Virus record (IMG/VR): IMGVR_UViG_2737471834_000007
Length of the DNA stretch: 36,329 nt
Direction: 5' to 3' (one strand)
Source: a virus
Lineage: Duplodnaviria > Heunggongvirae > Uroviricota > Caudoviricetes
Shown: positions 25,825 through 36,329 of the stretch, piece after piece
How positions within the stretch are numbered: the first letter of the stretch is position 1
How the letters are laid out: the number at the start of each line of letters is the position of its first letter
Position numbers and translations under genes: made by a program
Notes under the pieces: generated by a model
Databases searched by the model: none
What the model was told of the DNA's origin: nothing
Seen by the model: the letters and a program-made list of their open reading frames with translations, nothing else

Positions 25825-26252
25825 TGTGGTGTTCTCCGGTGTTGTGTCGGCCTGGCGAATGAATTGCGTTGTGGTGAAAAGACCATTCCCGCCAGCGCGG
25901 CCTTGCGATTGACGACATTCAGTGTTCTGGCCAGCGCTGCGTTGTGTTTGTGTGCCTGTTCTTCGTGGTACTTCTGCATGATTTTCCCTGCAGGTGTGCA
26001 CGGCTCCGACTCCTCCGGCGAACGGCGGGTACGAACTGAGACAATCCAGCTCTTATGTTCATTTCCCGGCCGTCTGTTGAGTATATCTGTAATGGTGGTT
26101 TTCGTGGTGCGGTCAGGATTGACCACTGTGATTTCCAGTTCATCGCCGGGTTGTGGTCTCGTGGCAATGTTGTTCAGAGTCAGTAATGGCGTGCGCTGGC
26201 GCATCATGTTGTCAAAGCGCTGGCGCTGCATGGTGCAGTAAAAACGGGTCAT
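25821..26252 (-). CDS. Hypothetical protein (143 aa) translationally coupled to the replication gene
   Basis: ATGA overlap with the gpA-like stop at 26249-26252. Confidence 0.5.
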   Translation of the reverse strand: MTRFYCTMQRQRFDNMMRQRTPLLTLNNIATRPQPGDELEITVVNPDRTTKTTITDILNRRPGNEHKSWIVSVRTRRSPEESEPCTPAGKIMQKYHEEQAHKHNAALARTLNVVNRKAALAGMVFSPQRNSFARPTQHRRTPQ

Positions 26253-28786
26253 TGTGGCCCCTCCGTTTTCTGTGCAGGGTTGAGCTCAATGCGGCGGGTG
26301 TTGTCGTTCCAGTACGCGGTGCGCCCGTCATCCAGGAGAACACGGGCCCCGTTACGCACGGAAATAATGGCTGCGTCAGGCAGTTGTACGCCCAGTGCAT
26401 CGAGTTCGCGGGTGATTTGTGCGGTGATGTGTGGCTCTGCTGTCAGTGCGACATCCACGCGAACGCCGTCAGTGGGCGCACTGATGCCGCCGTTTTTCAC
26501 GGTTTCTGTGTCAGGTGGCGGGTTTTTCAACTGCCGGGTGAGTTGTTTTCTCTGTACCGGTGTCAGCGACCTCAGCCATTCGGTTAAATCACCTTCCGGC
26601 AGGATAAGTCGTTGCTCCCTGCGTCTGTCCTGTTTCCCTTCTGGCGTGGCATTACTGGTTAAATTCTGGTCATGGGGACAGTTATTGCCACGAGTCCAAG
26701 GGGCGACAAAGTCGCCCTCAACGTCAAAATCAGTTTCGCTGGCGCTGTCTTCACCTTCCGGCTTACGTCTGACCAGTTTCCAGGTGTCCGGATGGGTGCA
26801 TATGGTGTACTGCTCCCCGAGTGACGGTGCACGGACACCGTAAATACGTTGCGGAAATTCGCCGTAGTCGTTGGCCTCTTCGGCGGTTTCGTATGCGGTG
26901 CGGACCAGGTACGTGTTGCGGGGAATGAGTACACCACCCTGCCTGGTGATGTAGGTGGCAAAACATCCCACATCAGCGGCGGCCAGTATGGCGTCAATGT
27001 CTTCATTATCGAGGCGCTGTGGTGCCTTCGGGTTACGGGCTATCTGCCCGGCAAGACGGCGGAGTTCGCGCCATACCTGGCGTGGCGGGATACCGAAGAA
27101 CTGGAACTGGCGGATGCGGTGAAGGGCCGCCCAGCCGATGGCGTTCTCCACGGTTTCGGCCATGGTTTTACCTGATTCCCTGTCGGAGTATGGTTTGCCG
27201 GTTTTCGGGTCATTTCCCATAAATACGCTGGCGTCCAGGTTCTTACCGATATAGGTCGCGATATAGCTTGCCGGGGTGCCTTTTGCCGGGTCGATTTTTT
27301 CGCATTTAAAACGCGGGGAGATATCATCACCCAGCTCTGCGCAGTCCTCCCTGATGGCGGCGTTGCGCATGATTTCAGTGATACGGGCTTCGTTTTCCTG
27401 GCTGGTGAATACCAGCATGTGCCAGTGCGGTGTGCCGTCGTGGTGAGGCTCCACGGTGCGTACACCGTACCAGCCCAGCCCGGCTTTGCTGATGATCTTG
27501 CGGACGGCAGCGAAAAATCTGTAAACCAGGTAATCACTGGCATCGCGTACCGTTGCCCCGCAGAATTTCTGGTTCAGGCTGCCGTCATCGTTCACGCTGT
27601 GAAAACGGGAAGGGGCGGTGACGGTGACGAAAAACGCCACATCGCCGCGCGCTTCGGCGACCTGCTCCATTCCCCGGACGCAGGCCATCATCTCGTTGCG
27701 ACGGTTGCGCGGATTGGCGAGTCCGGCCCAGTAGATATCCTCAAGGCTGAACCGCTCTCCCTCTTCGTTCTCGACATCCCAGGCTTTCAGAAAATCGCGG
27801 GTGCGCTGGCGTTTTTCGCGCCAGTCCAGTAACGCTTCATGGCTGATGTATACCGACTCCTTACGTGACACCAGACCTGCGGCGCGTAACAGCTCTTCCC
27901 GCCAGATGTCGCGAAGGTGTCTTAACTGACCGTTCCACCAGTTCGCGCAGGAAAGACGCATGACCGCACCCGGCACCTGTTCCAGGTCGGGGGCGGTGCG
28001 GCGGTCGGGTCTGATTTCCAGCGACGGCCAGCAGGGCGGGGTGATACCCAGTTTTAACGCCATATGTGCCAGCGGCTGGTAGGTCAGCAGCCAGGTGTAC
28101 AGGTCATCATCCCCCTTTCCGGTCCTTTTGATGGCCTCATCACATGCGCGCTCCAGTGCGGCGGAAAATGCGGTGGCGGTCAGGGTGGCAAGGCGCTGAA
28201 TGTCGTCGCGCTCCAGTTGCGGGAGTATCAGGAGTTCATCCAGTCGTTCGCGGGCAGCGGTGGCCTTAAATGCTGTAGTGGCAAACCGTTCATTCACCTG
28301 TCTGATGCGTTTCAGACGGGCACGCAGCCCGTGACGAACGAAGTTATCCGCTGCGTATGCGCTGTTGTTCTTAAGTTCTTTCTGACGGGCATCGTCCTGT
28401 TTGCGTCTGAAGAACGCCAGCCTGCGAATCAACGGTCCGGCGAGAAAGGCCGGAAGGGCGCGCAGCTCTGCCATGGCCTCGGATACCAGCGTGGGTGGGT
28501 TATCGCGTCTGTACCTGGCCAGCTTTTCCAGCCGTATCTGCCGCTCTTCGTCGTGATGAAGGTGCGAATTAATCTGCCTGCCTTTTTCTGTGCATGTCAG
28601 GAAGACGACGGTTTCTTCATCCAGCCGGGCATTAATCCGGATGTCTTCGTTGATGTAGCTCTGAATTGCCCTGCGTAATGCCGTCGGCTTCTGTGGTAAC
28701 GCTCTGCCGAAGGTTTCCGGGTCGATAACGGGCAGTGGAGCGTTCCATGACCAGGCCCATTCGCGGTTGGTGTTCATGGCGATCAC
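26249..28786 (-). CDS. Rolling-circle replication initiator/endonuclease, gpA-like (845 aa)
   Basis: HUH motif (TPHWHMLVF) and paired catalytic tyrosines (SYIATYIGK), characteristic of P2 A-type initiators. Confidence 0.8.
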   Translation of the reverse strand: MIAMNTNREWAWSWNAPLPVIDPETFGRALPQKPTALRRAIQSYINEDIRINARLDEETVVFLTCTEKGRQINSHLHHDEERQIRLEKLARYRRDNPPTLVSEAMAELRALPAFLAGPLIRRLAFFRRKQDDARQKELKNNSAYAADNFVRHGLRARLKRIRQVNERFATTAFKATAARERLDELLILPQLERDDIQRLATLTATAFSAALERACDEAIKRTGKGDDDLYTWLLTYQPLAHMALKLGITPPCWPSLEIRPDRRTAPDLEQVPGAVMRLSCANWWNGQLRHLRDIWREELLRAAGLVSRKESVYISHEALLDWREKRQRTRDFLKAWDVENEEGERFSLEDIYWAGLANPRNRRNEMMACVRGMEQVAEARGDVAFFVTVTAPSRFHSVNDDGSLNQKFCGATVRDASDYLVYRFFAAVRKIISKAGLGWYGVRTVEPHHDGTPHWHMLVFTSQENEARITEIMRNAAIREDCAELGDDISPRFKCEKIDPAKGTPASYIATYIGKNLDASVFMGNDPKTGKPYSDRESGKTMAETVENAIGWAALHRIRQFQFFGIPPRQVWRELRRLAGQIARNPKAPQRLDNEDIDAILAAADVGCFATYITRQGGVLIPRNTYLVRTAYETAEEANDYGEFPQRIYGVRAPSLGEQYTICTHPDTWKLVRRKPEGEDSASETDFDVEGDFVAPWTRGNNCPHDQNLTSNATPEGKQDRRREQRLILPEGDLTEWLRSLTPVQRKQLTRQLKNPPPDTETVKNGGISAPTDGVRVDVALTAEPHITAQITRELDALGVQLPDAAIISVRNGARVLLDDGRTAYWNDNTRRIELNPAQKTEGPQ

Positions 28787-29264: not shown

Positions 29265-29492
29265 TTAGTGGTGGTATTGCTGGCTGATGAGGTCCTGCAG
29301 CTCCGCGAGATCATCCGCCAGGTAGCTGAAGACTGCCGCGTAATACCCGGCAGCGATACCGCCGTTAAGCCGATGTAATACGTTTGACTGCATGATGAAG
29401 GCGACAGATGCAGCCCGATGGAGTCTGCGGTTGATTTCGGTGCGGATGTGAAGGCGCTCAGCGCGGGCGCGCTGTTGTTTGCGGTTTGCCAT
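29265..29492 (-). CDS. Hypothetical small basic protein (75 aa)
   Basis: GAAGAGG SD upstream of the ATG; Arg-rich N-terminus. Confidence 0.45.
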   Translation of the reverse strand: MANRKQQRARAERLHIRTEINRRLHRAASVAFIMQSNVLHRLNGGIAAGYYAAVFSYLADDLAELQDLISQQYHH

Positions 29493-29780
29493 GGTATGGC
29501 CTCTTCGTTTGTAAGTTTGGGAAACTCACCATCCAGAGGTTCCAAGCTCGGGGTGGCGAGACGTACGGGGTTGGAACTACCGGAAAACGAAGAAACCGGC
29601 CCGACCAGAGTCGGCCCCGTACGCCCCGCCATAATTTGGGTGCGAAAACGGCGTGGCGATACGGTACGCACAAAAAAACCGCTGGCGCGGCTGTGCGCTT
29701 CGTTTGTCGGCGGGGTTCCAATCCCGGCACCCGTTTTATGAGGTGCAGCGGGAATGTAACCCGACAGATTGCGGCATGGC

Positions 29781-29840
29781 AAGCGGTTTTTTTGTGTGTG
29801 CATGATGATCACTCAGTCCGGTAACAGTTCACGGAGCACG
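29781..29840. repeat. Direct repeat copy A (~57-60 bp) at the 3' end of the methyltransferase gene
   Basis: About 85% identical to 30876-30932 by hand alignment (AAGCGGTTTTT..GTGTGTGCATG...ACTCAGTCCGGTA.CAGTTC). Confidence 0.6.
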
Positions 29841-30828
29841 GCGTCAGCTGTTGTTCTGTGGTGTAAGAGGTAAACATCGCGCTGTAAGTTGTATCTCCCG
29901 TCACCGTGCCGCAGTCCGGACAGTAGCCGCCGCCATGGCGACCACAGGCGGCGCACTGTCTCAGGGTGGCGATAACCTCCGGTGCTGGTTTTCGGGTTTT
30001 TGCGCCAACGCTTCGAGGTGCCTGGATGCGGTTCATCCGGTAGCCCTGATAAATGCGCCGGGTTTCCGGTGTGTCGGAGCCGGAAATGGTTATGCTGGTC
30101 ATTCCACCTGTTTCCTGTGAAAGACGGTCAAGCGCTGCTCTCAGGCGAACGTGTTCGTCCTTCGTGAAGGGGTTTTCGTAGGCGGTGAAATTGTCCCGGC
30201 CACTGAATGGCAGGTAAGGGGGATCGCAGTACACGCAAAGCGTACTACCTATGCTGAACAGGTGACTGGCAGTGTTCAGCGTTTTCTGAAAATCGCCATG
30301 AACAAGCAGTGTTCTGGTGCTGTTTGCCTTGTCTGCAAATGCGCGGATTTCCCGTTCAGGGAAGTAGGGAGCCCGGTAGCCACCGAATGGGACATTAAAA
30401 TCCCCTTTTTCATTCACCCGGTACAGGCCATTAAAGCAGTGCCTGTTGAGGTATAAAAACATGGCGGCCAGCCGTAATTCGCGACGGTCGCTTATTCCCG
30501 TGCTCAGGAATGCATGATTCTCTGCATTAAAGGTGTTACGGATAGCGAGATAGTCAGTCCTGTTGTTGTGCTCCAGGAACAGGCCTTTTGCTTCGTTGAT
30601 CAGACTGTCGGTGTTGTCCCGTGCTGCCCGACAGAAATTAATCAGCGCACCATTGGAATCACCCGGGATGTAGCGGCTGTAACTGGTGTTCATGAATACC
30701 GATGCGCCACCCACGAACGGCTCAACCAGGCAGTCAGCTTCTGGCAGGTGCGCCTTCAGTGTGTTCATGATGCGGCTTTTCCCGCCCACCCATTTCAGCG
30801 GTGTGCCGGATAACAGTTCTTTGCTCAT
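29809..30828 (-). CDS. Dam-family N6-adenine DNA methyltransferase (339 aa), orphan
   Basis: AdoMet-binding motif (EPFVGGASVF) N-terminal and catalytic DPPY C-terminal (alpha-class order); Cys-rich C-terminal tail; no restriction endonuclease partner seen. Confidence 0.8.
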   Translation of the reverse strand: MSKELLSGTPLKWVGGKSRIMNTLKAHLPEADCLVEPFVGGASVFMNTSYSRYIPGDSNGALINFCRAARDNTDSLINEAKGLFLEHNNRTDYLAIRNTFNAENHAFLSTGISDRRELRLAAMFLYLNRHCFNGLYRVNEKGDFNVPFGGYRAPYFPEREIRAFADKANSTRTLLVHGDFQKTLNTASHLFSIGSTLCVYCDPPYLPFSGRDNFTAYENPFTKDEHVRLRAALDRLSQETGGMTSITISGSDTPETRRIYQGYRMNRIQAPRSVGAKTRKPAPEVIATLRQCAACGRHGGGYCPDCGTVTGDTTYSAMFTSYTTEQQLTPCSVNCYRTE

Positions 30829-32706: not shown

Positions 32707-33186
32707 TCACCTGCGATATTGAGGATGCTGAAAACTACGACCGCTGATTAATCGGTCTGCTGTTCTTAATGCTTCGTGCAATGTGAAATCCTGTCCGAAC
32801 TGATCATCACCGCGAGTCAGGTAATAACAGGTGTTTCCGGTAATCGGGTTGCGTGCGCCTCTGTGTATGACAATTCCGGCATCATTAATCAGCCAGGTGT
32901 GTTTACCTGTTTGTTTAACCAGATACCCGTCAGGTGTGGCGTGTGTTTCCTGCAGGCTGTAGCGTTTTGTGCTGGCAGCACTGGTGGAGAAACGGTTAGC
33001 GTGGCGTTCTGCATTGCTGCGGAAGCGCTGCTGTGAAGAATTGTGCTGTTGCTTCATACAAAAATATCCCGCTGTTGTTGCGAATTTGTGCCGGGTTTTA
33101 GCCATGCCCGGCGCATGGTTTTGTGGTATTTTTCCACCGCCTGCAGTCTTGAAGGGGCTGTGAATGGCGCGTGTTTTACTAACCAC
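32707..33186 (-). CDS. Hypothetical protein (start uncertain; candidates at GTG 33186, ATG 33105 and ATG 33057)
   Basis: Open frame only; no candidate start has a clear SD. Confidence 0.35.
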   Translation of the reverse strand: MVSKTRAIHSPFKTAGGGKIPQNHAPGMAKTRHKFATTAGYFCMKQQHNSSQQRFRSNAERHANRFSTSAASTKRYSLQETHATPDGYLVKQTGKHTWLINDAGIVIHRGARNPITGNTCYYLTRGDDQFGQDFTLHEALRTADRLISGRSFQHPQYRR

Positions 33187-33199
33187 AAAGGAATAAAAT

Positions 33200-33382
33200 A
33201 TGTCCTATGATGAAAAGGTTATTGATGCGCTAAATGCGGCAATTTCTGTATTAGAGAAAGCGCCGGTTAATCCTCCGAATAAAGGAGAACCATCAAATAC
33301 CATTCGTAAGCTTATGCGCGAAGTGCGTAAACTCACGCTAAAAAAATATCCTCAGGCAAGCAAATATATTTTTCCTGATTAA
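33200..33382 (+). CDS. Small + strand protein (60 aa) convergent with the early operon
   Basis: AAGGAA SD 6 nt upstream of the ATG; its stop overlaps the stop of the convergent 135-aa gene (TTAA). Confidence 0.4.
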   Translation: MSYDEKVIDALNAAISVLEKAPVNPPNKGEPSNTIRKLMREVRKLTLKKYPQASKYIFPD

Positions 33383-33786
33383 TTAACTTCTGTGCCGGAG
33401 ATTTTCTCTGGCACATTTCCGACCTCAATAACCATGTTGTCATTACTTAAAATTTGCCGATAAAGTTCAAAGGCTTCTTCTGCAGGGAAACGGAGCATGA
33501 CACCGCATGCAGGTTCTAAAATCATTCCAATAGTTCCTTTAGCATCGTCACGACAAAAATGGCCGTATTCATCGTCAGGATGCAGGATGACATCTTTCAA
33601 ATCTTCGCCATTCTGAAGCTTTGATTTTAATGCCATCAGACCAGCGAACGTTCTGTGTAATTCGTGGTAGTCAACGCTGATTTCAATCTGCGGTTTTCCC
33701 GGGAAAACCAGCAAAAGCTTCTGGTGTGGTTTTTCGTTTTTCAGATTTTCCAGTTGTTCCAGTAGTACTTCATCTTCGTGATTCAT
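33379..33786 (-). CDS. Hypothetical early protein (135 aa)
   Basis: AAAAGAGG SD upstream of the ATG; acidic; first gene after the Cox-like gene. Confidence 0.5.
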   Translation of the reverse strand: MNHEDEVLLEQLENLKNEKPHQKLLLVFPGKPQIEISVDYHELHRTFAGLMALKSKLQNGEDLKDVILHPDDEYGHFCRDDAKGTIGMILEPACGVMLRFPAEEAFELYRQILSNDNMVIEVGNVPEKISGTEVN

Positions 33787-33890
33787 TCTACTGTTACCTC
33801 TTTTAACTCATTCAGGCAGTGTGATATAGCCCACTAACTGCCCGTGTTTGAAATAACGGCGACGAAAATAATGTGTTAACAATAAAGCAA

Positions 33891-34250
33891 TCATGCGGCC
33901 CTCGCTTTTTTAGTTCTGCTTCGTTCGCTATGTGTTGGCTTAAATAAAAACAGACGGTTTTCCCAGTCGTGCCATTCTTGTGGAGCATTTTCGATCAAGC
34001 GATCACATGCTTCATCCCACGCTTTTCTGTTGATGTAGAGTTCAGCGTTTCCGCCTGGTTTGAGAGGGTCTGCCATATACACGGCTGGCAATTTCCCTGC
34101 TTTAGCCATGCTCACAATGGCGTTAACTGTTTTGCCGATATACATCGCAAACCCTTCTTTTGACAGGAGATGCGAGGGATTTTCTGAAAGTCGAATTTCT
34201 TCACGTTCACGTGCTTTGCGTCCTGTTTTTTGATACTCCCCCTCTGGCAT
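33891..34250 (-). CDS. Cox/Apl-like excisionase/transcriptional regulator (start uncertain: 34250, 34145 or GTG 34355)
   Basis: YIGKTVNAIVSMAKAGKLPAVYMADP resembles P2 Cox (LIGKSTGAVRRMIDKGKLPVIDMTDP) as recalled from memory; divergent from the C repressor gene. Confidence 0.55.
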   Translation of the reverse strand: MPEGEYQKTGRKAREREEIRLSENPSHLLSKEGFAMYIGKTVNAIVSMAKAGKLPAVYMADPLKPGGNAELYINRKAWDEACDRLIENAPQEWHDWENRLFLFKPTHSERSRTKKARAA

Positions 34251-34430
34251 TTCTGACAGGTGATCGCATCGTGTTCCGCAAAGTGACTCAGGCGCGTTTT
34301 GAGTGCTTTCTTGCATCTGATATCCTCCGCCATTGGTGCTCTTTCTAATTGGCACTAGTTGGAACCACTTAGAACATTTGTTTGCTGTTAATATGTGGTG
34401 TTAATCTACACATATGTAGGAGTTTGTCAA
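34251..34430. promoter_or_regulatory. Lysis-lysogeny switch region between the cox-like and C genes, with candidate operator repeats
   Basis: Inverted repeat ATATGTG-N11-CACATAT (34391-34415) and repeated GTTAAT elements just upstream of the C start. Confidence 0.45.
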
Positions 34431-34724
34431 ATGGACATTCCGCAAAAAATTCGCGTCATGCGCAAATCTGAAGATCTCACTCAGCGGGAATTCGCTGATA
34501 TGATTGGAATTTCTTATTCTGCTCTGACCAGTTATGAGTATGGTCGTAACCTTCCTGGCCTTGAGATCACTATCAAGCTTTTCAAGCACCCGAGATTTTC
34601 TAAATACCGCGACTGGTTTTTGTTCGATGAGGTCGAACCAAAGGCCGGGCAGGTGGTACCGGCTCTCGCACACATTGGGCAAAGCGAAGCGGAATCGTCC
34701 CGCTCCGGCAAGAAGACTGGCTAA
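34431..34724 (+). CDS. C: Immunity repressor, P2 C-like (97 aa from the ATG at 34431)
   Basis: C-terminal PALAHIGQSEAESSRSGKKTG matches P2 C (PALAHFGQ...SGQKTG) as recalled from memory; HTH segment near the N-terminus; AGGAG SD. Confidence 0.7.
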   Translation: MDIPQKIRVMRKSEDLTQREFADMIGISYSALTSYEYGRNLPGLEITIKLFKHPRFSKYRDWFLFDEVEPKAGQVVPALAHIGQSEAESSRSGKKTG

Positions 34725-34790
34725 CGGTCCATCTGGCCTTTATTTCTCAAAATTGTGATCAAGATGATGTTTTCATTGGGGGGCTTCCTT

Positions 34791-35801
34791 ATGTCGATTA
34801 AGAAGCTCGCTGATGGCAAATACTGTGTGGACGTGCGGCCTGCTGGATCTGAAGGAAGAAGATTTCGGCGGCGATTTCCTACCCGTGGTGAAGCGGCGAT
34901 GTATGAACGCCATGTTCTGACGCATTATCACGATAAGGACTGGGTAGAAAAACCCATTGAACGTAAAGCGTTAAGCGATCTTCTGGAACTGTGGTGGGTG
35001 TACCACGGTAAGAATCATCGTTATGGCGCGATGAATCGGGTCAGAATTGAAGCGGTTCTTCGTGATATGCGAGAGCTTGGTATTAACAGAAGTGACCATT
35101 TAACCCGAAAAAATATTATCAGATATCGCCTTGAATTAATGAATCGTGGAATTAAGCAGTCAACGGTAAATCGTTATTGCGCAATGATGAGCGGTTTCTT
35201 TGAAAAGCTGATTGATGTTGAAGAGTTTGTGGGTGATAACCCATTTCACGAGATACGCAAGCTAACAATTAATCAGCCTGAAATGGCTTATCTTGCACAT
35301 GATGATATTCCCAGGCTAACCGCGCTTTTATCTGGCGATAATCTTAAGGCTGTATTGTTAAGCCTGGCCACTGGCGGTCGTTGGGGTGAAGTTGCCAATA
35401 TTAAAGGTGAACACATAATTGGTGGGAAGGTTATTTTCATGGAGACAAAGAATGGATCTAGGCGGGTTATTCCTATAGCTAAAGATCTTGAATCTCTGAT
35501 TAAAGTAAAGGCGACGGGAAGATTAATAAAACCCAGTTATGCAACTGTCAGGAGTGCGATAAGGAGTGTTCGACCTGATTTGCCAGTCGGTCAGTCTGTG
35601 CATGTTTTACGACACACATTTGCAACTCATTTTATGATTAATGGGGGGAATATTATTACCCTGCAGCGTATTTTAGGACATAGCACAATCCAGCAAACAA
35701 TGACCTATGCGCACTTTGCACCTGATTATCTCCAGGATGCGGTAAGGTTCAATCCTGTCGCGGAGTTGTCCAGATATTGTCCACAAATAGGGACTAAATA
35801 G
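34791..35801 (+). CDS. int: Tyrosine integrase, P2 Int-like (336 aa from the ATG at 34791; track ORF starts at GTG 34755)
   Basis: MSIKKLADGKYCVDVRP matches the P2 Int N-terminus (MAIKKLDDGRYEVDIRP) as recalled from memory; catalytic HVLRHTFATHFMINGG and LGHSTIQQTMTYAHFAPDYLQDA motifs. Confidence 0.85.
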   Translation: MSIKKLADGKYCVDVRPAGSEGRRFRRRFPTRGEAAMYERHVLTHYHDKDWVEKPIERKALSDLLELWWVYHGKNHRYGAMNRVRIEAVLRDMRELGINRSDHLTRKNIIRYRLELMNRGIKQSTVNRYCAMMSGFFEKLIDVEEFVGDNPFHEIRKLTINQPEMAYLAHDDIPRLTALLSGDNLKAVLLSLATGGRWGEVANIKGEHIIGGKVIFMETKNGSRRVIPIAKDLESLIKVKATGRLIKPSYATVRSAIRSVRPDLPVGQSVHVLRHTFATHFMINGGNIITLQRILGHSTIQQTMTYAHFAPDYLQDAVRFNPVAELSRYCPQIGTK

Positions 35802-36063: not shown

Positions 36064-36077
36064 TTAAGGAGGTGCAG

Positions 36078-36329
36078 ATGCGTATTACCATAAAAAGATG
36101 GGGGAACAGTGCAGGTATGGTCATTCCCAATATCGTAATGAAAGAACTTAACTTACAGCCGGGGCAGAGCGTGGAAGCGCAGGTGAGCAACAACCAACTG
36201 ATTCTGACACCCATCTCCAGGCGCTACTCGCTTGATGAACTGCTGGCACAGTGTGACATGAACGCCGCGGAACTTAGCGAGCAGGATGTCTGGGGTAAAT
36301 CCACCCCTGCGGGTGACGAAATATGGTAA
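36078..36329 (+). CDS. chpS: ChpS (ChpBI) antitoxin of the chpSB toxin-antitoxin pair (host gene); the chpB start codon overlaps its stop at 36324
   Basis: MRITIKRWGNSAGMVIPNIVMKELNLQPGQ...GDEIW is the MazE-type AbrB-fold antitoxin ChpS; AAGGAGG SD; terminal ATGGTAA gives the overlapping chpB start. Confidence 0.85.
   Translation: MRITIKRWGNSAGMVIPNIVMKELNLQPGQSVEAQVSNNQLILTPISRRYSLDELLAQCDMNAAELSEQDVWGKSTPAGDEIW

Follow-up and report, generated by a model that had tools for sequence, protein, structure and literature searches.

Temperate phages carry morons, in the definition of Hendrix and Juhala, and the old, tin and Z/fun genes of phage P2 are examples of them. Two moron positions, A-Q and G-FI, have been described in P2-like phages (PMC3573123), and antiviral hotspots have been described in P2-like prophages (Rousset et al. 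2022, PMC9122126; 2026 survey, PMC13586616). Here we analyze a convergent pair of small genes, encoding proteins of 60 and 135 amino acids (aa), at positions 33200 to 33786 of the IMG/VR virus record IMGVR_UViG_2737471834_000007. Below, "the window" means the whole stretch of 36,329 nucleotides (nt) that was analyzed, which ends in the left arm of a P2-like Escherichia coli prophage; among cultured phages, Escherichia phage P88 (Xuanwuvirus, Peduoviridae) is its nearest relative. As shown by comparison with related prophages, the region of the pair is an accessory cassette between cox and a gene of the DUF4761 family, and the site of this cassette is best read as a third accessory slot of P2-like phages, located inside the early operon.

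The locus shares several properties with the known morons: it consists of extra DNA absent from close relatives, its base composition deviates, its gene is framed by its own promoter-like and terminator-like signals, and variable cargo occupies a fixed slot. It differs from them in that the cassette is set antisense between cox and the replication genes, inside the essential early lytic operon, and in that its 3' end is packed tightly into the neighboring gene; moreover, its predicted promoter and its leader are portable, nearly invariant and common to many unrelated cargo open reading frames (ORFs). With the antiviral hotspots it has in common a small locus and a high turnover of cargo in P2-like prophages. 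However, the cargo here consists of single small ORFs of 56 to 160 aa with no known defense match in PADLOC, and the conserved boundary is a noncoding leader instead of a core gene. The cassette is at neither the old/tin position (gpA-gpQ) nor the tail-gene hotspot, being placed between cox and the DUF4761 gene, with gpA following approximately 4.6 kb farther along the - strand. In the literature that our searches found, neither the slot nor the leader nor the gene pair is described. The features of the cassette are as follows.

33073-33910: accessory cassette, with limits set against P88 (BLASTN homology ends at 33072 and resumes at 33911; P88 holds about 43 bp at this place).
33088-33118: core with almost no variation, GTGCCGGG-TTTTAG-CCATG-CCCGGCG-CATGG, spanning -51 to -21 relative to the predicted + start.
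33124-33132, + strand: candidate extended -10 element, TGgTATTTT (TGnTAnnnT), with a predicted start at G 33139.
33139-33199, + strand: predicted 5' leader, with a stem-loop at 33139-33168, a CA-rich stretch ACTAACCACAAA and the Shine-Dalgarno sequence AAGGA at 33188-33192.
33200-33382, + strand: 60-aa ORF, with an ATG start 7 nt after AAGGA and the stop TAA at 33380-33382.
33379-33382: TTAA, the 4-nt overlap of the stop codons of the 135-aa and 60-aa ORFs.
33379-33786, - strand: 135-aa ORF, with an ATG start, AGAGG 8 nt upstream of the ATG and the stop TAA as the complement of 33379-33381.
33391-33415, + strand: 11-bp hairpin, TGTGCCGGAGA-TTT-TCTCTGGCACA, then TTTCC, located 8 nt past the + stop and within the tail codons of the 135-aa gene.
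33808-33894, - strand: candidate micro-ORF of 28 aa, MIALLLTHYFRRRYFKHGQLVGYITLPE, whose ATG overlaps the cox stop (ATGA) and which ends 21 nt before the 135-aa start.

In P88, the distance from the cox stop to the DUF4761 start is 37 bp, and the window is about 838 bp longer at this place. The GC content is 0.39 to 0.43 across 33200-33900, compared with 0.47 to 0.51 in the cox and DUF4761 flanks. Hence, absence from close relatives and deviating base composition, two tests for a moron, are both found in the cassette. None of the phage records in the collection includes the pair, and the full pair was detected, at 90% identity, in 1 of 5426 complete E. coli genomes. Other P88-like prophages retain the upstream noncoding stretch (95% identical over 33058-33192) together with roughly 120 codons at the start of the - strand gene, and the segment between the kept leader and the kept 135-aa core is swapped among them. 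Besides the pair in the window, the slot was seen in the following forms.

A 155-aa + strand gene named "ECs1072 family" with a 202-aa - strand gene, overlapping by 50 bp.
A 78-aa + strand gene with a 162- to 164-aa - strand gene, overlapping by 7 bp.
An unrelated pair of 155 and 117 aa.
A deletion derivative (L028), in which the + strand gene is retained and the - strand gene is deleted.

The variable C-terminal tail of the 135-aa family is part of the swapped segment and changes with the + strand gene; in the window, the tail (residues 125 to 135), predicted to be disordered, is encoded by the hairpin sequence 3' of the + strand gene. Long alternative C termini were also seen in this family, in a 202-aa gene (L002/L014) and in a 162- to 163-aa gene (L025/L026), each with a different convergent + strand gene. 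One alternative C terminus is an 80-aa extension that appears by eye to be a coiled coil, and another is a 40-aa basic tail ending in KKGKFLGFINQ. An earlier reading of this DNA from its sequence only (the sequence-only reading) had regarded a + strand gene inside a - strand early operon as unusual. This view was not upheld for this phage group, because the leader followed by a + strand ORF recurs in 66 IMG/VR contigs, in SEN4/SEN5 and in vB_YpM_115.

The sequence and the ORF list confirm that the 135-aa and 60-aa genes converge with their stops overlapping in TTAA. The features that the sequence-only reading ascribed to the individual genes were found as well: the 60-aa gene has its own Shine-Dalgarno sequence (AAGGA, 33188-33192), and the 135-aa protein is acidic (isoelectric point [pI] 4.8; 25 D+E versus 13 K+R) and has a good Shine-Dalgarno sequence, AGAGG. 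The charges are opposite, the 60-aa protein being basic (pI 9.6). To compare pair-bearing loci, we used E. coli, Yersinia enterocolitica and IMG/VR contigs, whose prophages differ in integrases, repressors, Cox types and integration sites. Both frames are intact in every compared pair locus, and the 60-aa ORF keeps its length too; its frame and length survive 24% nucleotide divergence. There are indels at the pair junction, yet both frames end exactly there in all loci compared. Ratios of nonsynonymous to synonymous substitutions (dN/dS) were obtained as Nei-Gojobori estimates versus the Yersinia copy (dS about 0.9 to 1.8), and they were 0.13 to 0.14 for the 60-aa ORF (dS 0.9 to 1.3) and 0.12 to 0.19 for the 135-aa ORF. 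Since the frames are intact everywhere and dN/dS is low, both ORFs are, on this comparative evidence, protein-coding genes under purifying selection. The 60-aa ORF, on whose conservation the sequence-only reading had staked its interpretation, is thus conserved. As for the way the two stops meet, the tight tail-to-tail packing is conserved and the 4-nt overlap itself is not: it is restricted to the window and its nearest relatives (L015), and most relatives show a TGA/TTA abutment with a 0-nt spacer.

The placing of the 135-aa gene as the first one after cox needs a qualification, as it is possibly preceded by the 28-codon ORF at 33808-33894. The encoded peptide, FRRRYFKHG(Q/M)LVGYI, is basic and aromatic and is conserved in loci sharing the right flank. 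Four synonymous changes in L027 (AAA>AAG, TTA>TTG, GTG>GTT and GGC>GGA) give this micro-ORF a coding-type substitution pattern. It has no Pfam match and is unannotated in the related annotated records L001, L002 and L027.

Next, the two protein families were delimited. In a search of 5.8 billion proteins, the 135-aa family comprised 33 clusters, and a profile search of 1.84 billion representatives yielded just 2 further distant small relatives. The 60-aa family comprised 5 close clusters and, by profile search, 28 clusters from the genera Escherichia, Yersinia, Pectobacterium, Brenneria and Serratia. All members of both families are in Enterobacterales, and all are annotated "hypothetical." In the 135-aa protein, a core of ~120 aa is conserved and the short tail is predicted to be disordered; the AlphaFold2 model is alpha/beta, with a predicted local distance difference test (pLDDT) score of 78.8 and residues 125 to 135 below 50. 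The 60-aa protein was modeled as a helical hairpin, with helices at residues 3 to 20 and 32 to 49 (pLDDT 84.4). Both products are hydrophilic, with grand average of hydropathy values of -0.38 and -0.60. Profile searches of PDB sequences found no relative of either protein, fold searches that included BFVD found no fold neighbor for the 135-aa or the 60-aa model, and PADLOC gave zero matches for either protein at E values up to 1. For the alternative cargo, Pfam, PHROGs, PADLOC and NCBIfam yielded nothing usable beyond the uninformative name "ECs1072 family." The description of the 135-aa gene as lacking a recognizable function therefore stands, as homology and structure searches gave none. The anti-defense or host-shutoff activity proposed for the locus found no backing in PADLOC, Pfam, PHROGs, NCBIfam or the fold searches, all of which were empty. 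Since the family and fold searches were empty, we infer function from the layout alone.

To establish the age of the pairing, the two distant relatives of the 135-aa protein are informative. Both of them, P0039 (35% identity) and P0042 (26%), are encoded directly downstream of cox in P2-like prophages that differ in their int, C and cox genes, and each is then followed by a convergent gene for a 62- to 64-aa protein that clearly belongs to the 60-aa family. These distant 60-aa relatives exhibit the motifs MSYDDELIKMLK...IRDLANDVR...KYP and MNEDEKIINLLK...EKYP. The junctions of the distant pairs are one 13-nt gap and one CTAG stop overlap of 4 nt (L111). In L054, the partner of a 60-aa-family member is probably related to the 135-aa family (hhalign E = 0.0028), which would add a fourth lineage with a convergent pair to those of the window, P0039 and P0042. 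The partner genes in L030 and SEN4 were also considered as members of the 135-aa family and rejected, since the comparison shows that they are unrelated. The 60-aa-family members in L030 and SEN4 thus face unrelated - strand genes, and the 135-aa core occurs with other + strand genes. These comparisons show a pairing that is linked across deep divergence, old but not obligate. Because pairs recur in distant lineages while each gene also has other partners, the ancestral state looks like the pair, with either member later replaced. We also observed in L111/L112 (2672-2848) a 58-aa gene between cox and the 138-aa homologue, which occupies the place of the micro-ORF and whose product appears by eye to be strongly hydrophobic and membrane spanning.

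Upstream of the 60-aa gene, the sequence is far more conserved than the genes themselves: ~110 nt are ~95% identical in Yersinia, and the genes are ~76% identical. The usual order after the core, on the same strand, is a short variable spacer, ACCAACCACAAAGGA and a small ORF. Conservation ends at the Shine-Dalgarno sequence, and at least 12 unrelated families of small + strand ORFs (56 to 160 aa) are found downstream, in early regions of Peduoviridae. These leader-borne ORFs converge tightly on a - strand early gene, with stop-to-stop distances of -50 to +33 nt. Variants of the leader were collected with a pattern ending in ...TTGTGGTA, and the following positions were tabulated for the 42 unique variants. 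The unconstrained -7 position is T in 42/42 variants, while positions -10 to -8 vary, giving ten different hexamers. A G is present at the predicted +1, 7 nt past the last T of the motif, in 38 of the 42, and alignment and folding show that a class-specific GC-rich hairpin begins at the predicted start. The TGnTAnnnT pattern is therefore a candidate signature of an extended -10 sigma-70 promoter, with a transcript from ~33139. Different leader classes have different GC-rich hairpins at the same place and have ACCAACCACAAAGGA in common. L111, which is the most diverged pair and is without the canonical core, retains TGcTATGTT, a hairpin and the CA-rich leader. The leader stem TTGTGGT/ACCACAA, read as an RNA helix, has two compensatory variants, but its 5' arm overlaps the -10 element and would precede the predicted start. 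A search of Rfam gave no family for the leader, the sole match being a subthreshold one to isrK. The term "independently regulated moron" applied by the sequence-only reading is borne out as far as sequence goes, as the unit is absent from P88, is AT richer, and has its own -10-type motif and leader and a hairpin with TTT.

The leader was also observed in Yersinia phage vB_YenM_42.18 (L069, 2500-2730), where it is followed by an unannotated 39-aa + strand ORF, MSNTEDEVHTLVQRDF... This ORF is wholly inside the annotated 221-aa - strand gene gp08, and one of the two gene calls may be wrong; in the same phage, the annotated start of gpB falls inside the conserved core.

At the other end of the + unit, the hairpin at 33391-33415 folds with -17 to -20 kcal/mol. 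In Yersinia, three one-sided pair-preserving substitutions keep all hairpin pairs, and the encoded peptide changes from EKISG to ESLPD. A hairpin with TTT is found directly downstream of about half of the cargo ORF families. As the - strand sequence past each hairpin is not U rich, the signal would be one-directional, and the early operon could therefore read through. We considered a strong terminator after the ORF and rejected it, the energy being no better than that of random windows; position, TTT and conservation argue for a signal that we call terminator-like for the + unit.

The most conserved part of the cassette is the core, of about 31 to 32 nt, with the consensus GTGCCGGGTTTTAGCCATGCCCGGCGCATGG. 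It contains two interleaved inverted repeats, GCCGGG...CCCGGC and CCATG...CATGG, and is more conserved than the surrounding genes (~95% identical in Yersinia versus ~76% for the flanking genes). A strict pattern detected the core in 39 IMG/VR contigs and a relaxed one in 66; it was also found in 17 of the 5426 E. coli genomes, where it is never annotated, and in the cultured Peduoviridae phages SEN4/SEN5, vB_YpM_115 and vB_YenM_42.18. Two core copies are present in contigs L056 and L079 and in E. coli MSB1_4I. On the - strand, the core has the topology of an H-type pseudoknot, with a stem 1 of 5 bp, a loop 1 of 1 nt, a stem 2 of 6 bp, no loop 2, and a loop 3 of 5 to 8 nt that is variable in length and A rich throughout. 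This geometry is impossible on the + strand, where the last loop would be 1 nt, too short to span a 6-bp stem. All 23 variants have a fully paired stem 1 (CCAUG/CAUGG), in which U-A was replaced once by C-G, a compensatory change. In stem 2, 22 of the 23 variants retain the internal pairs (L087 being the exception), one G-U pair would be a mismatch on the + strand, and the terminal pairs are loose. These comparisons include very few independent changes, and the single-sequence fold has a z score of about -1.8, so that the pseudoknot reading on the - strand is suggestive. A count of one-sided changes, 3 for the + strand and 2 for the - strand, gave no clear bias, and on this count we rejected the idea of RNA pairing between the core arms on a specific strand; a finer parse of the core changes slightly favors the - strand. 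We also rejected a coding role for the core, as an N-terminal "MAKTRH" extension of the gene that follows, because its frame relation to that gene differs from locus to locus and because all codon positions in it are invariant.

Read as DNA, the core could be a regulator site at a promoter without a -35 element. By eye, none of the sigma-54, CRP, marbox and Ogr (TGT-N12-ACA) consensus sites fits it, and the loop of the C4 RNA in the window has no complementarity to it. The closest described RNA is the Hfq-binding IsrK RNA (RF01394), with which the - strand of the core shares a similar order, a GCCGGG..UGG..CCCGG hairpin and then ACAAA. Nevertheless, the core is not a member of that family, scoring 14.6 bits versus a gathering threshold of 50, and the true isrK copy, at 29672-29746, scores 68 bits. 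Rfam holds no family for the core, the isrK match having an E value of 2.1 in a 1-kb search (- strand, 33060-33140).

The genes around the cassette are listed here from right to left.

36072-36329: host MazE/ChpS-type gene, at the right end of the window.
34755-35801, + strand: integrase.
34431-34724, + strand: C-type repressor with a helix-turn-helix.
34430-34403, - strand: Pe-like promoter, TTGACA-16-TAGATT, from the consensus promoter scan.
33891-34319, - strand: Cox-family gene, gene 1 of the early operon (PF10743, E = 5e-28).
32707-33057, - strand: DUF4761 gene, which follows the cassette in the early operon (PF15958, E = 4e-44).
29672-29746, - strand: isrK RNA (RF01394, 68 bits).
29549-29636, - strand: C4 antisense RNA (RF01695, 83 bits), in tandem with isrK.
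29268-29492, - strand: 75-aa gene of the "Derepression" family (PF25738), with isrK and C4 directly upstream.
26249-28786, - strand: gpA.

The early operon on the - strand comprises Cox, the studied pair, DUF4761, DUF4754 and further genes, and farther along this strand are a Dam-type methylase, the isrK and C4 RNAs, the "Derepression" family gene and gpA. Within the operon, a D12-class N6-adenine DNA methyltransferase of 339 aa (PF02086) is encoded at 29809-30828 on the - strand. The isrK-C4-"Derepression" array (29265-29746) corresponds to an antirepressor control module of the P1 immI/Gifsy-1 IsrK type in a P2-like early operon, and inspection by eye shows complementarity between the C4 loop CUUCGUUU and AAACGAAG of the isrK copy. 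At the right end, the prophage integrase (34755-35801) adjoins the host chpS/MazE-type antitoxin gene (36072-36329). The related prophage L009 occupies the same integration site, with MazE, then PemK, then ppa, and other cassette carriers are integrated beside dmsA, glutaminase, citrate synthase or serS.

As a model of layout and expression, we give slightly better than even credence to the reading that the cassette is an antisense moron-type unit with a portable promoter and leader; promoter activity, expression in the lysogen, interference and protein function are what we infer in it. The 135-aa gene would be read from Pe as part of the early lytic operon, and the 60-aa gene would be a separate transcription unit antisense inside it. 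This + unit would consist, in order, of an extended -10 element without a -35, a start at ~33139 with a 5' stem-loop, a CA-rich leader with its Shine-Dalgarno sequence, the ORF, and a one-directional hairpin with TTT. In the lysogen, C would repress Pe, so that the + unit would be expressible and the small helical-hairpin protein would be made. After induction, strong transcription from Pe would run head-on through the + unit, which would be silenced, and would continue to the replication genes, and the 135-aa protein would be made; expression of the two genes would thus alternate. In a lysogen, leaky Pe RNA, should any arise, would form a duplex of ~280 nt with the + RNA. If both promoters fire, antisense interference must follow from the geometry. 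Several observations weigh against this reading. The two-hexamer consensus promoter scan found nothing upstream of the + strand gene, which is because there is no -35 element. The hairpin has three U's only, a consensus terminator scan gave no call for it, and its energy is within the range of random windows of the genome (mean, -12.0; standard deviation, 4.5 kcal/mol). Pfam, PHROGs, PADLOC and NCBIfam gave no usable match for either protein, leaving the functions unassigned. Moreover, a simple constitutive promoter leaves the core unexplained: the promoter could be regulator dependent and not necessarily expressed in the lysogen, and the core could instead act as RNA on the other strand.

Another explanation, possible though in our view rather unlikely, is that the two genes function as a dedicated pair. 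In this view, the early protein of 135 aa would be harmful or decisive for the host (takeover or lysis commitment), and the 60-aa protein and/or its mRNA would neutralize leaky expression in the lysogen, making the locus a lysogeny fail-safe that is toxin-antitoxin-like, or type I-like with a protein-coding antisense RNA. Convergent type I toxin-antitoxin loci that overlap at their 3' ends are known from Bacillus prophages, namely, txpA/ratA and bsrG/SR4, and the oop RNA of lambda against cII is comparable. Like these, the locus studied here is a tail-to-tail prophage unit with complementary RNAs, for which RNase III-type interference would be expected. The difference is that the antisense partner here encodes a conserved protein and that neither product is a small hydrophobic toxin: type I systems combine such a toxin with a noncoding antisense RNA, whereas here the products are hydrophilic and the antisense unit is coding. 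As regards type II systems, which are co-directional operons of two genes with a toxin or antitoxin fold that can be recognized, the genes here are convergent, and no Pfam, NCBIfam or PADLOC family or fold neighbor was found. A dedicated pair would account for a pairing that survives deep divergence in mosaic prophages (P0039, P0042 and, probably, L054), for the opposite charges (pI 4.8 versus 9.6), for a + RNA that would be fully complementary to the early transcript, and for a 135-aa tail that changes whenever the + strand gene is swapped. However, a recombination breakpoint within the gene also accounts for this last covariation, and the 135-aa core also occurs with a 78-aa or an ECs1072-family + strand gene, as the 60-aa members do with unrelated genes (L030 and SEN4). 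In addition, L028 retains the + strand gene after deletion of the - strand gene, PADLOC and the toxin-antitoxin families gave no match, and neither protein is hydrophobic. Speculative, and unlikely on present evidence, is a wider proposal in which the core and leader would be an undescribed mobile expression platform of Peduoviridae that plants small lysogen-side genes antisense in the early operon. There, the core would serve either as a structured RNA of a new kind, an H-type pseudoknot of the early transcript, or as a regulator site letting the operon tolerate or sense the insertion, and the + RNA and the 60-aa and 135-aa proteins would form a lysogeny fail-safe or decision module.

We regard as improbable the view that the + promoter is of the establishment type, like lambda PRE or 186 pE, with an activator on the core around -38 and a transcript running antisense through the 135-aa gene and cox into C and int, which would favor lysogeny and carry the small ORF as a passenger. 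The resemblance lies in a promoter, predicted here, inside the lytic operon and pointing toward repressor and integrase, with no -35 element, a dyad around -38 (GCCGGG-N11-CCCGGC, centered near -38) and a transcript antisense to a cro/apl/cox-type gene; the + unit is oriented like C and int, and the weak U-tract on the hairpin after the ORF also fits. The cassette promoter, in contrast, has its own ORF with a hairpin directly after it, a hairpin being found after about half of the cargo ORF families, and the leader-borne ORFs are under purifying selection with good Shine-Dalgarno sites. P88 and other Xuanwuvirus phages do without the cassette, so that the unit is dispensable, and the position of the core relative to the -10 element varies between leader classes, one class having the -10 8 nt closer to the core, which misfits a fixed activator geometry. 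Nor was a CII-family protein found among the ten early-region ORFs scanned, where weak CII-like PHROG matches fell on the C repressor only. Finally, the 60-aa ORF might have arisen by chance or as an artefact of annotation, opposite a spacer that is not translated, as would fit its shortness, its lack of a known domain and its constant annotation as "hypothetical." This is effectively refuted and very improbable: its frame and length are kept over 24% divergence and junction indels with a dN/dS of 0.13, its diverged homologues are in five genera, its Shine-Dalgarno sequence is conserved, and AlphaFold2 models it confidently as a helical hairpin.

The P2-like phages, which serve as textbook models, are known to carry anti-phage systems, and the positions assigned to their accessory genes so far are A-Q and the tail genes. 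The slot described here holds small, unannotated, backward-facing genes that share one portable leader and predicted promoter. With head-on transcription and no spacer between the genes, the layout of the antisense moron-type unit would be a simple design for alternate lysogenic and lytic expression, and the core is a candidate new regulatory element. Overall, the at least 12 small-protein families of the slot make a compact and testable set, and they likely act in lysogens or at the lysis-lysogeny switch.

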